Positions 5,025 to 5,694 of a DNA stretch of 5,694 bases are shown piece by piece. Made by a program: the position numbers and the translations under genes. Within the stretch, counting starts at the first letter, position 1; each line of letters starts with the position of its first letter. The notes under the pieces were generated by a model that was not told the DNA's origin, searched no databases, and saw nothing but the letters and a program-made list of their open reading frames with translations. Source of the stretch: a virus (Duplodnaviria; Heunggongvirae; Uroviricota; Caudoviricetes); the IMG/VR virus record IMGVR_UViG_2698536559_000015, one strand, 5' to 3'.

Positions 5025-5195
5025 ATGTCGATTAAACATTACGATGTTGTCAGGGCGGCGTCGCCGTCAGACCTTGCGGAAAAGCTGACACACAAACTGA
5101 AAGAGGCCTGGCAGCCGTTTGGTAGTCCGGTGGACATAACTCCTTATACCCTGATGCAGGCGATTGCAGCAGAAGGTTATGTGGTGGTCAAGTAA
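5025..5195 (+). CDS. Small (56 aa) phage-associated hypothetical protein, possibly DUF1737-like
   Basis: ATG 5025 preceded by SD GGGAGA at 7-nt spacing. Translation MSIKHYDVVRAASPSDLAEKLTHKLKEAWQPFGSPVDITPYTLMQAIAAEGYVVVK, stop TAA 5193-5195. The family guess comes from memory of small prophage proteins and is weak. Confidence 0.55.
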   Translation: MSIKHYDVVRAASPSDLAEKLTHKLKEAWQPFGSPVDITPYTLMQAIAAEGYVVVK

Positions 5196-5371
5196 TACTG
5201 GCCACCGTTACCCAGAAACTGAATGGAGTTGCAGGTTCGGCACTCCAGGTCATAAAAGACAGTCTGACACTGAGCCTGAATGCGCTGACGCTGACGGATG
5301 TTACAAAAAGTGCAGCGTATGGCGTTGAGATAGAAAGTCTGGTGCTGGAGATGAATGCACCGGCAGCATAA
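5126..5371 (+). other. Coding-like open frame with no canonical start codon, overlapping and extending past the 56-aa ORF; possible frameshifted gene remnant
   Basis: Frame 2 is open from the TAG at 5123-5125 to TAA 5369-5371 and reads ...ILATVTQKLNGVAGSALQVIKDSLTLSLNALTLTDVTKSAAYGVEIESLVLEMNAPAA. It has protein-like composition but no ATG, GTG or TTG until near its end. Confidence 0.3.
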
Positions 5372-5379
5372 TAAAAAAG

Positions 5380-5409
5380 AGCCAGCGCCCACTCTGAAGG
5401 ACGCTGGCT
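5380..5409 (-). terminator. GC-rich stem-loop flanked by A-tracts on the + strand (a hairpin plus T-tract on the - strand); copy 1 of a tandem unit
   Basis: AGCCAGCG (5380-5387) pairs with CGCTGGCT (5402-5409), loop about 14 nt. Preceded by AAAAAAG and followed by AAAAGG on the + strand, so it reads as an intrinsic terminator only for - strand transcripts. Confidence 0.35.
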
Positions 5410-5524
5410 AAAAGGCCTTATATGTTTGTAGAGACTTATTTTTCACAGACAGCAATGATGTCTGTCAATATATTATCAATATGCGGATTGTTTCAGTTAC
5501 AGATGCTTTATTAAAGAAAAAAAC

Positions 5525-5559
5525 AGCCAGCACTGACTTTCGGTGGAGAGGTGCTGGCT
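5525..5559 (-). terminator. Second copy of the GC-rich stem-loop flanked by A-tracts (tandem unit copy 2)
   Basis: AGCCAGCAC (5525-5533) pairs with GTGCTGGCT (5551-5559), loop about 17 nt. Preceded by GAAAAAAAC and followed by CAAAAGG, the same arrangement as copy 1. Confidence 0.35.
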
Positions 5560-5676
5560 CAAAAGGATAGATGGACTTCACATGTTGCTTCTATATGGCG
5601 GTACATTTTCTGACAGACAGTGACGGATGTTGTCAAGATATTGTGTCATTTATAACCTGAATCAGGGGAGGCCGGA

Positions 5677-5694
5677 ATGTTATCTGGCATTTTT
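5677..5694 (+). CDS. Possible 5' end of a downstream gene (MLSGIF...), truncated by the window edge
   Basis: ATG 5677 preceded by a strong SD AGGGGAGG at about 6-nt spacing. Only 6 codons are visible, so identity is unknown. Confidence 0.3.

Follow-up and report, generated by a model that had tools for sequence, protein, structure and literature searches.

Results

The Repeats Lie between an Esterase Remnant and a Holin in a Lambdoid Prophage

The window (the whole 5,694-nucleotide stretch of DNA that was analyzed) is the late-regulatory region of a lambdoid prophage. Toward its end, downstream of tRNA genes and an sRNA gene of the STnc100 family, lie a 3' remnant of nanS-p, an esterase gene, and the two repeat units considered here (Table 1). 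The remnant is the 3' end of the SASA family esterase annotated in phage 434, Stx1 phages, and E. coli prophages; the gene is partly missing from the window through an internal deletion, and its stop codon (5371) abuts the U tail of the first repeat unit. A BLAST search with positions 5201-5694 returned the nanS-p end together with its adjoining spacer in phage 434, H-19B, YYZ-2008, Stx1a phages, and many E. coli prophages.

The two-unit locus occupies the stretch that separates nanS-p from the holin gene, a spacer that phage 434 and the Stx1 phages also possess. This spacer is collinear with those of phage 434, prophage PP2 of E2348/69, and RM14723, and the holin comes next in all three. The holin itself lies beyond the window end and, in phage 434, starts ~125 nt past the equivalent point. 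The order PasD/STnc100-type sRNA, esterase, PasA, and holin has been reported by Zhu, Shabalina and Storz (bioRxiv 10.64898/2026.05.13.724894), and the gene order of the window, with the holin seen in its homologs, agrees with that arrangement.

Table 1. Features of the window and of the two-unit locus, with the evidence for each where the analysis gives it
Feature	Position	Strand	Basis or comment
DUF968/HNH-type protein	14-1069		
RusA ORF and Q-like ORF	within window		
Three tRNAs	3686-3926		
Split TerB gene	within window		
STnc100-family sRNA (PasD-type)	4700-4886		Rfam scan, 114 bits
Terminator after the STnc100-family sRNA	4911-4929	+	Terminator scan
DUF1737 ORF	5025-5195		
nanS-p (sialate O-acetylesterase) 3' remnant	5198-5371	+	Sequence matches (see text)
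Unit 1 transcript, predicted ~61-nt sRNA of EcOnc51/52 type	5373-5433	-	Hfq-CRAC and RIL-seq on homologs; fold
Putative read-through isoform over both units	5373-5601	-	229 nt here; 236-nt "minor" PasA in EPEC
Unit 1 intrinsic terminator hairpin	5380-5409	-	11 pairs, 8 of them G-C; then C and a 6-U tail (5378-5373)
ORF1, 30 aa	5422-5514	+	Judged spurious
Unit 1 putative promoter	5439-5468	-	-35 at 5468-5463, TGT at 5447-5445, -10-like GAAAAA at 5444-5439
Unit 2 transcript, PasA-type Hfq-dependent sRNA, 85 nt	5517-5601	-	PasA northern probe, alignment
Unit 2 intrinsic terminator hairpin	5525-5559	-	Then a 7-U tail (5523-5517)
PasA seed GCCAGCACCU	5549-5558	-	Overlaps the terminator 5' arm; published in PMC8550237, Fig. 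S5
ORF2, 29 aa	5571-5660	+	Judged spurious
Unit 2 putative promoter	5607-5636	-	-35 at 5636-5631, TGT at 5615-5613, -10-like CAGAAA at 5612-5607
Conserved spacer upstream of the putative pasA promoter	5637-5694		Near-invariant in all homologous loci
Weak terminator-like hairpin	5671-5688	+	Terminator scan

The Two Units Are Homologous along Their Whole Length

An initial annotation, made from the letters of the sequence, had described two tandem imperfect repeat units here, each with an A-tract, a GC hairpin, AAAAGG, and a short ORF, and everything it described is present. The pattern AGCCAGCR...YGCTGGCT occurs exactly twice, once as the hairpin of each unit, where 200 shuffles of the sequence lead one to expect 0. 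On the plus strand, a run of A precedes each hairpin (5373-5378 and 5517-5523) and AAAAGG follows it, and both short ORFs are found as listed. The core shared by the units is indeed read in different frames, with CAGACAG at position +24 of ORF1 (frame 0) and at +43 of ORF2 (frame 1). When aligned on the minus strand, from upstream of the -35 through the U tail, the units agree at 83 of the 101 positions that align (82%), or at 64% when all columns are counted. The score of this alignment stands at z = 9.1 against 1,000 dinucleotide-preserving shuffles, none of which came near it, and the units are homologous along their whole length.

Each Unit Has a Terminator and a Promoter-like Core on the Minus Strand

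Each unit, read on the minus strand, comprises TTGACA, a spacer of 18 nt that closes with TGT, a weak -10, a body of ~45-60 nt that is mostly without structure, a hairpin, and a U tail. Written out in order, these are AATAT(A/C)TTGACA, ten variable bases, CTGTCTGT, the -10 (GAAAAA or CAGAAA), the body, CCUUUU, the hairpin, and the U tail. The A-tract of the plus strand is hence the U tail of an RNA, and the plus-strand AAAAGG is the U-rich stretch before the terminator.

The hairpins have T-runs on the minus strand only, and the earlier suggestion that they are minus-strand terminators was correct: they end the minus-strand sRNA genes described below. A terminator scan called the unit 1 hairpin on this strand, its fold energy is -22.7 kcal/mol (z = -4.5), and the phage 434 record annotates both homologous hairpins as minus-strand terminators. 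A covariation analysis, which had been proposed as a check on the repeats, supports the terminator helix. Across 23 distinct variants its 8 bp are 99.5% paired, and two pairs covary, having changed on both sides (C-G to U-A and G-C to A-U); the loops differ freely in sequence and length. A GC-rich stem-loop, a T-run, and compensatory changes, the marks of a Rho-independent terminator, are thus all found. In the predicted folds of both RNAs, an open 5' region precedes the terminator hairpin, the usual form of an Hfq-binding sRNA.

The perfect TTGACA pointed out on the minus strand of unit 1 is present, and unit 2 has a second perfect copy on the same strand that the first reading missed. The longer pattern TTGACA-N10-CTGTCTGTSARAAA has two minus-strand occurrences (5468-5439 and 5636-5607) where 0 are expected. 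The shared core is probably the promoter region of each unit, a reading that the initial annotation overlooked. The two putative promoters are alike in architecture and spacing, the promoter-like core lies equally far from the mapped or predicted 5' end in both units, and the position of the unit 2 candidate fits the mapped PasA 5' end at 5601. A consensus promoter scan called neither; both -10 elements are weak, which explains why the unit 2 promoter went uncalled. Since the IMG/VR loci were retrieved with promoter-containing patterns, promoter conservation across them is not usable as evidence. The PasA 5' end may also come from cleavage of a longer transcript (bioRxiv 10.64898/2026.05.13.724894), in which case the TTGACA would not be the pasA promoter.

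Unit 2 Matches PasA

PasA (pathogenicity-associated sRNA A) was described in prophage PP2 of EPEC E2348/69 as an 85-nt RNA on the minus strand, from 743499 to 743415 (Pearl Mizrahi et al. 2021, PMC8550237). There, it was detected by northern blot, was destabilized without Hfq, and took part in 41 RIL-seq interactions, with unlinked host and virulence mRNAs making up most of its partners (PMC8550237). The PasA northern probe GCCAGCACTGACTTTCGGTGGAGAG (PMC8550237, Table S6) matches the window exactly at 5526-5550, with no mismatch. The unit 2 RNA, whose ends (5601 to 5517) were transferred by alignment from those of the E2348/69 gene, is identical to PasA of E2348/69 at 83 of 85 positions; the two substitutions lie in the 5' part. 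The published seed is unchanged on the minus strand at 5558-5549. Unit 2 therefore has nearly the sequence of PasA in E2348/69 PP2, and it has the PasA seed, terminator with a U tail, strand, and position, antisense between the esterase and a class II holin; judged by sequence, unit 2 is PasA. Expression, Hfq dependence, and RNA partners are taken from the published work on near-identical copies.

The spacer layout, with two units, is shared between the window, PP2, phage 434, and the Stx1 phages. PP2 differs from the window in two respects, namely that the window esterase gene has an internal deletion and that unit 1 of the window has a PasC-type, not a PP2-type, terminator loop. In EPEC, a minor PasA isoform of 236 nt shares the PasA start and has a second end at 743264, beside the esterase stop codon (PMC8550237, Table S6). 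A Rfam scan of the whole window at E <= 1 found nothing in 5372-5660; Rfam is without a family for PasA or the unit 1 RNA and hence provides no covariance-model confirmation.

Unit 1 Corresponds to the EcOnc51/52 Peaks of EHEC

The minor PasA isoform of 236 nt has unit 1 as its 3' portion; the EPEC authors treat the region as a 3' extension of PasA and file it under PasA (PMC8550237). The same authors list "pasA.E2348C_0688.IGR" separately, as an sRNA-like RIL-seq partner with 5 interactions (PMC8550237), and the chimeras assigned to it, at 743267-743294, fall on the unit 1 terminator. EcOnc51 and EcOnc52 are Hfq-CRAC peaks in prophages Sp12 and Sp4, respectively, of EHEC O157:H7 Sakai (Tree et al. 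2014, PMC4104026, Table S2), and they are cited as PasA homologs by the EPEC paper (PMC8550237). When placed on the sequence, these peaks fall on unit 1 and not on PasA itself.

In Sakai Sp4, an IS629 element has replaced everything past the unit 1 promoter, leaving the locus without unit 2. EcOnc52 (1181998-1182075, minus strand) covers positions 576 to 499 of this locus (L004), that is, from the predicted unit 1 start to just past the U tail, and its 5' edge corresponds to window position 5434, bearing in mind that CRAC peaks mark RNA ends only roughly. Since Tree et al. worked from an older version of the genome, we used three of their northern probes to check the coordinate offset. The EcOnc05 probe gave an offset of 0 at 1.18 Mb, the AsxR probe one of about +142 at 1.27 Mb, and the EcOnc04 probe one of about +128 to +142 at 2.19 Mb. 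With the estimated offset of +128 to +142, on which its assignment hinges, EcOnc51 in Sp12 also lands on unit 1. This placement agrees with the fact that the two peaks are equal in length and in signal, and with the identical unit 1 sequences of Sp12 and Sp4. Unit 1 is an Hfq-bound RNA in EHEC, and because unit 2 is absent from Sp4, the RNA there is not a product of read-through from pasA.

The Sakai sequences beneath the peaks have the same promoter core as unit 1 of the window, and their body and terminator stem are identical to those of that unit; the loop alone differs (CCCACTCTGAAGGA in the window versus ACTGACCTGAAAGAAGA in Sakai). Neither EcOnc51 nor EcOnc52 has ever been validated by northern blot or studied functionally. 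At the place equivalent to the PasA seed, unit 1 has GCCAGCGUCC, unlike PasA, and so it probably has other partners. The stretch CUCUACAAACAUAUAAGGCCUUUU is specific to unit 1. Since it shares promoter and terminator architecture with pasA, unit 1 is probably a tandem paralog of that gene, and it looks like one that has so far gone unrecognized.

Four explanations had been offered for the repeats. Two of them stand, tandem sRNAs and minus-strand terminators, which prove to be one and the same thing: the units are tandem minus-strand sRNA genes, the second of which matches the published PasA. The remaining two, type I toxin-antitoxin-like loci and regulator sites for a downstream gene, are not supported by the evidence presented below.

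Single-Unit Loci Have Junctions within Repeated Segments

We collected 166 spacer loci, mostly by pattern scans of IMG/VR, with the rest from phage and E. coli records. Both units are found in 104 loci, a unit-2-type gene only in 51, and unit 1 only in 11, counts that are affected by the way in which loci were retrieved. Many one-unit loci end at IS elements. Those with unit 1 only keep the promoter core and terminator intact, as in L004, L092, and a plasmid copy (L068).

Single unit-2-type genes lie in 48 complete loci. In 27 of these, of PasC type, a unit 1 terminator is combined with a unit-2-type body; in another 10, the esterase stop is joined straight to the unit 2 terminator at the A-run. 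Both kinds of junction fall within segments that are repeated between the units, a pattern that fits deletion by recombination between repeats.

PasC itself, from prophage PP5 of E2348/69, has a terminator identical to that of unit 1 in the window, loop included, together with a promoter and body of unit 2 type. PasC loci contain a single unit, whose unit-2-type body runs straight into the CGCTGGCTAAAACGGG terminator junction. We rejected the window as a PasC locus: it holds two complete units, and the PasC probe has no match in it within 3 mismatches. Rather, the window seems to show the two-unit form that, through a deletion between its repeated terminators, could give rise to a PasC-type locus. 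Apart from the window, a single one of the 166 loci combines two units with a PasC-type loop in unit 1, namely the related IMG/VR contig L109, whose identity to the window is 96.7% over 2.1 kb.

Neither this combination nor the whole of unit 1 as it stands in the window occurs in any of 5,426 complete E. coli genomes, among which full-length matches reach 92.1% at best. A holin-anchored search with one genome per bacterial species yielded 62 loci, and the units were present only in that of E. albertii (L006); this search therefore supplied no deep divergence for covariation. The element seems to be confined to Escherichia-type prophages.

A Pair of Paralogous sRNA Genes Is the Preferred Reading

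Taken together, these results argue, with a probability of about 0.87, for two tandem paralogous genes for Hfq-binding sRNAs on the minus strand of the nanS-p/holin spacer, in a lambdoid prophage like phage 434 and the Stx1 phages. In a lysogen, two sigma-70-type promoters, each combining a strong -35 with a weak -10 that follows TGn, would drive short minus-strand transcripts. Each transcript would stop at its own terminator, and some pasA transcripts would continue to the second terminator to give the longer isoform. The RNAs would bind Hfq through the U-rich stretch, the hairpin, and the U tail. Antisense to the phage late operon, they would in this genome most likely pair in trans with host and virulence mRNAs, PasA doing so through its seed GCCAGCACCU at the foot of the terminator.

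With little better than even confidence, we go a step further and regard unit 1 as a separate, unnamed Hfq-dependent sRNA gene with its own promoter and pairing region, the pair as a recombining modular cassette, and PasC as a recombinant of unit 1 and unit 2. Such a cassette would be composed of promoter, variable body, and terminator and would have diversified via the repeated A-run and terminator segments; the window and L109 would preserve the two-unit form that carries the PasC-type terminator.

A main role in cis is the alternative that fares best, and we consider it unlikely. According to this proposal, the RNAs, being antisense to the late transcript (the nanS-p 3' UTR and the holin leader), modulate the stability of the late mRNA or the expression of the holin, or else their promoters interfere with late transcription. 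Both RNAs are fully complementary to the plus strand, which is the strand of the late operon, and the hairpins are without a T-run on that strand, so late and esterase transcripts must pass through the region. The EPEC RIL-seq data include a plus-strand fragment opposite the pasA 5' end and an interaction of PasA with the esterase 3' end (PMC8550237), and positions 5341-5348 of the window match the seed perfectly over 8 nt. However, the predominance of unlinked mRNAs among the published PasA partners points away from cis, as does the free variation of the body among variants, even if each body still complements its own opposite strand. A role in cis is in any case compatible with the paralogous sRNA genes that we favor.

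Somewhat less probable again is a single gene, in which unit 1 has no working promoter and merely provides pasA with a back-up terminator and a 3' extension, such that the short unit 1 RNA is a processing product of the 236-nt read-through transcript. This would account for the EPEC isoform that ends at the unit 1 terminator and is filed under PasA (PMC8550237, Table S6), and it is consistent with the unit 1 -10 (GAAAAA), which is weak and uncalled by the scan. It is hard to reconcile with the EcOnc52 peak, which is seen on unit 1 in Sakai Sp4 even though unit 2 is gone. Unit 1 also has a perfect TTGACA and the spacer, TGT, and -10 layout of pasA, and the three unit-1-only loci named above (L004, L092, and L068) retain an intact promoter core and terminator.

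The Short ORFs Are Not Conserved

Type I toxin-antitoxin-like modules, in which the plus-strand ORFs, with AAAAGG as ribosome-binding site, encode toxins repressed by the overlapping minus-strand RNA, had been another of the proposals. The layout superficially fits, in that AAAAGG and the ORF1 start codon both fall within the stretch covered by the unit 1 RNA; the ORF1 product is also moderately hydrophobic. Yet the ORFs do not hold up in homologs. ORF2 stops after 4 codons in the PasC, Sp12, and 19KM2326N variants, in which promoter and terminator are intact, and it is equally short in the common PasA-2 variant. Of two diverged copies of ORF1, that of the plasmid copy (L068) is cut to 21 codons and that of L071 is frameshifted. 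All ORF substitutions observed are non-synonymous, the sequence that the units share falls in different frames of ORF1 and ORF2, and a comparison of four short-ORF products with NCBIfam and Pfam gave no match at E <= 1. Toxin-antitoxin modules are accordingly very improbable. With the ORFs broken in homologs, the earlier judgment that conservation is at the DNA or RNA level, not in the peptides, is borne out.

It is just as far-fetched to see the repeats as operator sites controlling a plus-strand gene at 5677 or the holin, for although the unit 1 promoter lies within a 27-bp imperfect palindrome (5442-5468) and the motif TGACAGACA occurs three times within 5443-5619, the holin in phage 434 has its own upstream plus-strand terminator and ribosome-binding site well beyond the repeats, and the units contain covarying terminator hairpins that operators do not need. 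The gene supposed to start at 5677 does not exist: the ATG opens a 9-codon ORF in homologs, phage 434 among them, and regulator sites for such a gene are unsupported for that reason. A regulator acting on the sRNA promoters themselves is possible.

Discussion

The repeat finding is real and is largely known already as the pasA locus. For annotation, its value is that odd repeats with tiny ORFs can be assigned to the pasA locus and to an sRNA of the EcOnc51/52 type. The RNAs of the PasA locus belong to the prophage sRNAs through which, in pathogenic E. coli, prophages of lambdoid and Stx type are tied to the regulation of host and virulence genes.

Our additions are that the Hfq-bound EHEC peaks cited as PasA homologs map to the neighboring unit 1, that unit 1 is probably paralogous to pasA, and that PasC-type and other single-unit loci look like products of deletion between repeated segments. 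If true, the recombining-cassette reading would revise the published claim that pasA copies do not stem from tandem duplication. These additions bear on how the sRNA repertoire of prophages diversifies and leave the general picture unaltered.

Among known systems, the prophage anti-sRNAs AgvB and AsxR (Rfam RF02702 and RF02703) resemble the units in being short RNAs that bind Hfq and run antisense to the late operon in lambdoid prophages; their 5' part is variable and their 3' terminator conserved. They differ in being located between the moron and nanS-p, not between nanS-p and the holin. We rejected an identity with AgvB/AsxR, as there is no likeness in sequence and no Rfam match in 5372-5660 at E <= 1.

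Adjacent paralogous Hfq-dependent sRNAs on the same strand, each with its own promoter and terminator, are also known from OmrA/OmrB in E. coli and PrrF1/PrrF2 in Pseudomonas, and read-through of a tandem sRNA pair can yield a longer species such as PrrH. The sequences and regulons of these pairs are unrelated to the units, which, unlike them, are located on a prophage, lie antisense to a late operon, and have bodies that have diverged almost completely.

A sialate esterase remnant carries the complement of the PasA seed core

Additional features of the window are given in the table below. The sialate esterase gene nanS-p (5025-5371, plus strand) has undergone a large internal deletion, from which two remnants are left, and an identical deletion occurs in 12 complete E. 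coli genomes as well as in a related IMG/VR contig (L109). At the esterase 3' end, GGTGCTGG (5341-5348) is perfectly complementary to the core of the PasA seed and also repeats the PasA terminator's 3' arm. In EPEC, RIL-seq identified the homologous site as a PasA target (PMC8550237).

Coordinates of additional features in the window
Feature	Coordinates	Strand	Remarks
ORF, 293-aa product	2508-3389	-	matches PDC-S42, a candidate anti-phage defence family in PADLOC (E = 4e-27)
CAT-anticodon tRNA	3686-3761		called Met by ARAGORN
TerB/TciA-like gene, first fragment	4070-4237	+	gene appears split
TerB/TciA-like gene, second fragment	4385-4531	+	gene appears split
STnc100-family sRNA	4700-4886	+	114 bits; terminator 4911-4929
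nanS-p, DUF1737 N-terminal ORF	5025-5195	+	
nanS-p, C-terminal remnant	5198-5371	+	
Weak terminator-like hairpin	5671-5688	+	

A repeated motif at the putative promoters and possible plus-strand RNA ends in the spacer

The putative unit 1 promoter lies within an imperfect palindrome of 27 bp (5442-5468), which reads TTCACAGACAGCA-A-TGATGTCTGTCAA. Allowing at most one mismatch, TGACAGACA is present in three copies within 5443-5619, one on the -10 side of each promoter and one at the unit 1 -35. This could be a regulator site, or simply a hairpin in the read-through RNA, i.e., the longer PasA isoform that crosses both units.

Three observations concern the plus strand of the nanS-p/holin spacer. 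First, the window has a weak terminator-like hairpin. Second, past the point where the window stops, homologues carry a strong plus-strand terminator just upstream of the holin gene (3538-3574 in the phage 434 locus, L001). Third, a plus-strand Hfq-bound fragment lies opposite the pasA 5' end in EPEC RIL-seq data (PMC8550237). Taken together, they suggest that the spacer may be a site where a plus-strand RNA ends too.

Insertion elements and plasmid copies

Among the homologous loci, this spacer is repeatedly broken by IS elements (IS629/IS1203 and others), as in Sakai Sp4 (L004, at 631), L070, L085, L092, L116, L122, L156, and others. The insertion points vary, and one of the two sRNA units is often lost. 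A diverged, isolated copy of unit 1 (88% identity) is found on plasmids of ~90 kb, at L068 (E. coli plasmid NZ_CP027578.1, 37835-37986) and at about 100 plasmid places. This copy adjoins a piece of the 3' end of the esterase gene and has a G-U pair at one altered stem position.

Other features of the window

The STnc100-family sRNA resembles EPEC PasD2 only at its start and terminator. Except for its last bases, the EcOnc04 northern probe (Tree et al.) is the reverse complement of window 4850-4885. Coordinates in the EcOnc table (Tree et al. 2014) follow NC_002695.1 and are offset from the current Sakai RefSeq version, NC_002695.2, by 0 at 1.18 Mb, by about +142 at 1.27 Mb and by between about +128 and +142 at 2.19 Mb; hence, looking them up directly in the latter is misleading.

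E. coli RM14723 has a homologue of the CAT-anticodon tRNA that is annotated as tRNA-Ile, which implies that the CAT anticodon is lysidine-modified. Only the second fragment of the TerB/TciA-like gene, and not the first, matches Pfam TerB, which makes the gene a probable pseudogene in this window. The ORF for the 293-aa product and two other ORFs on the minus strand (2229-2492 and 1841-2272), neither of which matches any family, make up a reverse-oriented cassette that is flanked by Q on one side and the tRNA cluster on the other.
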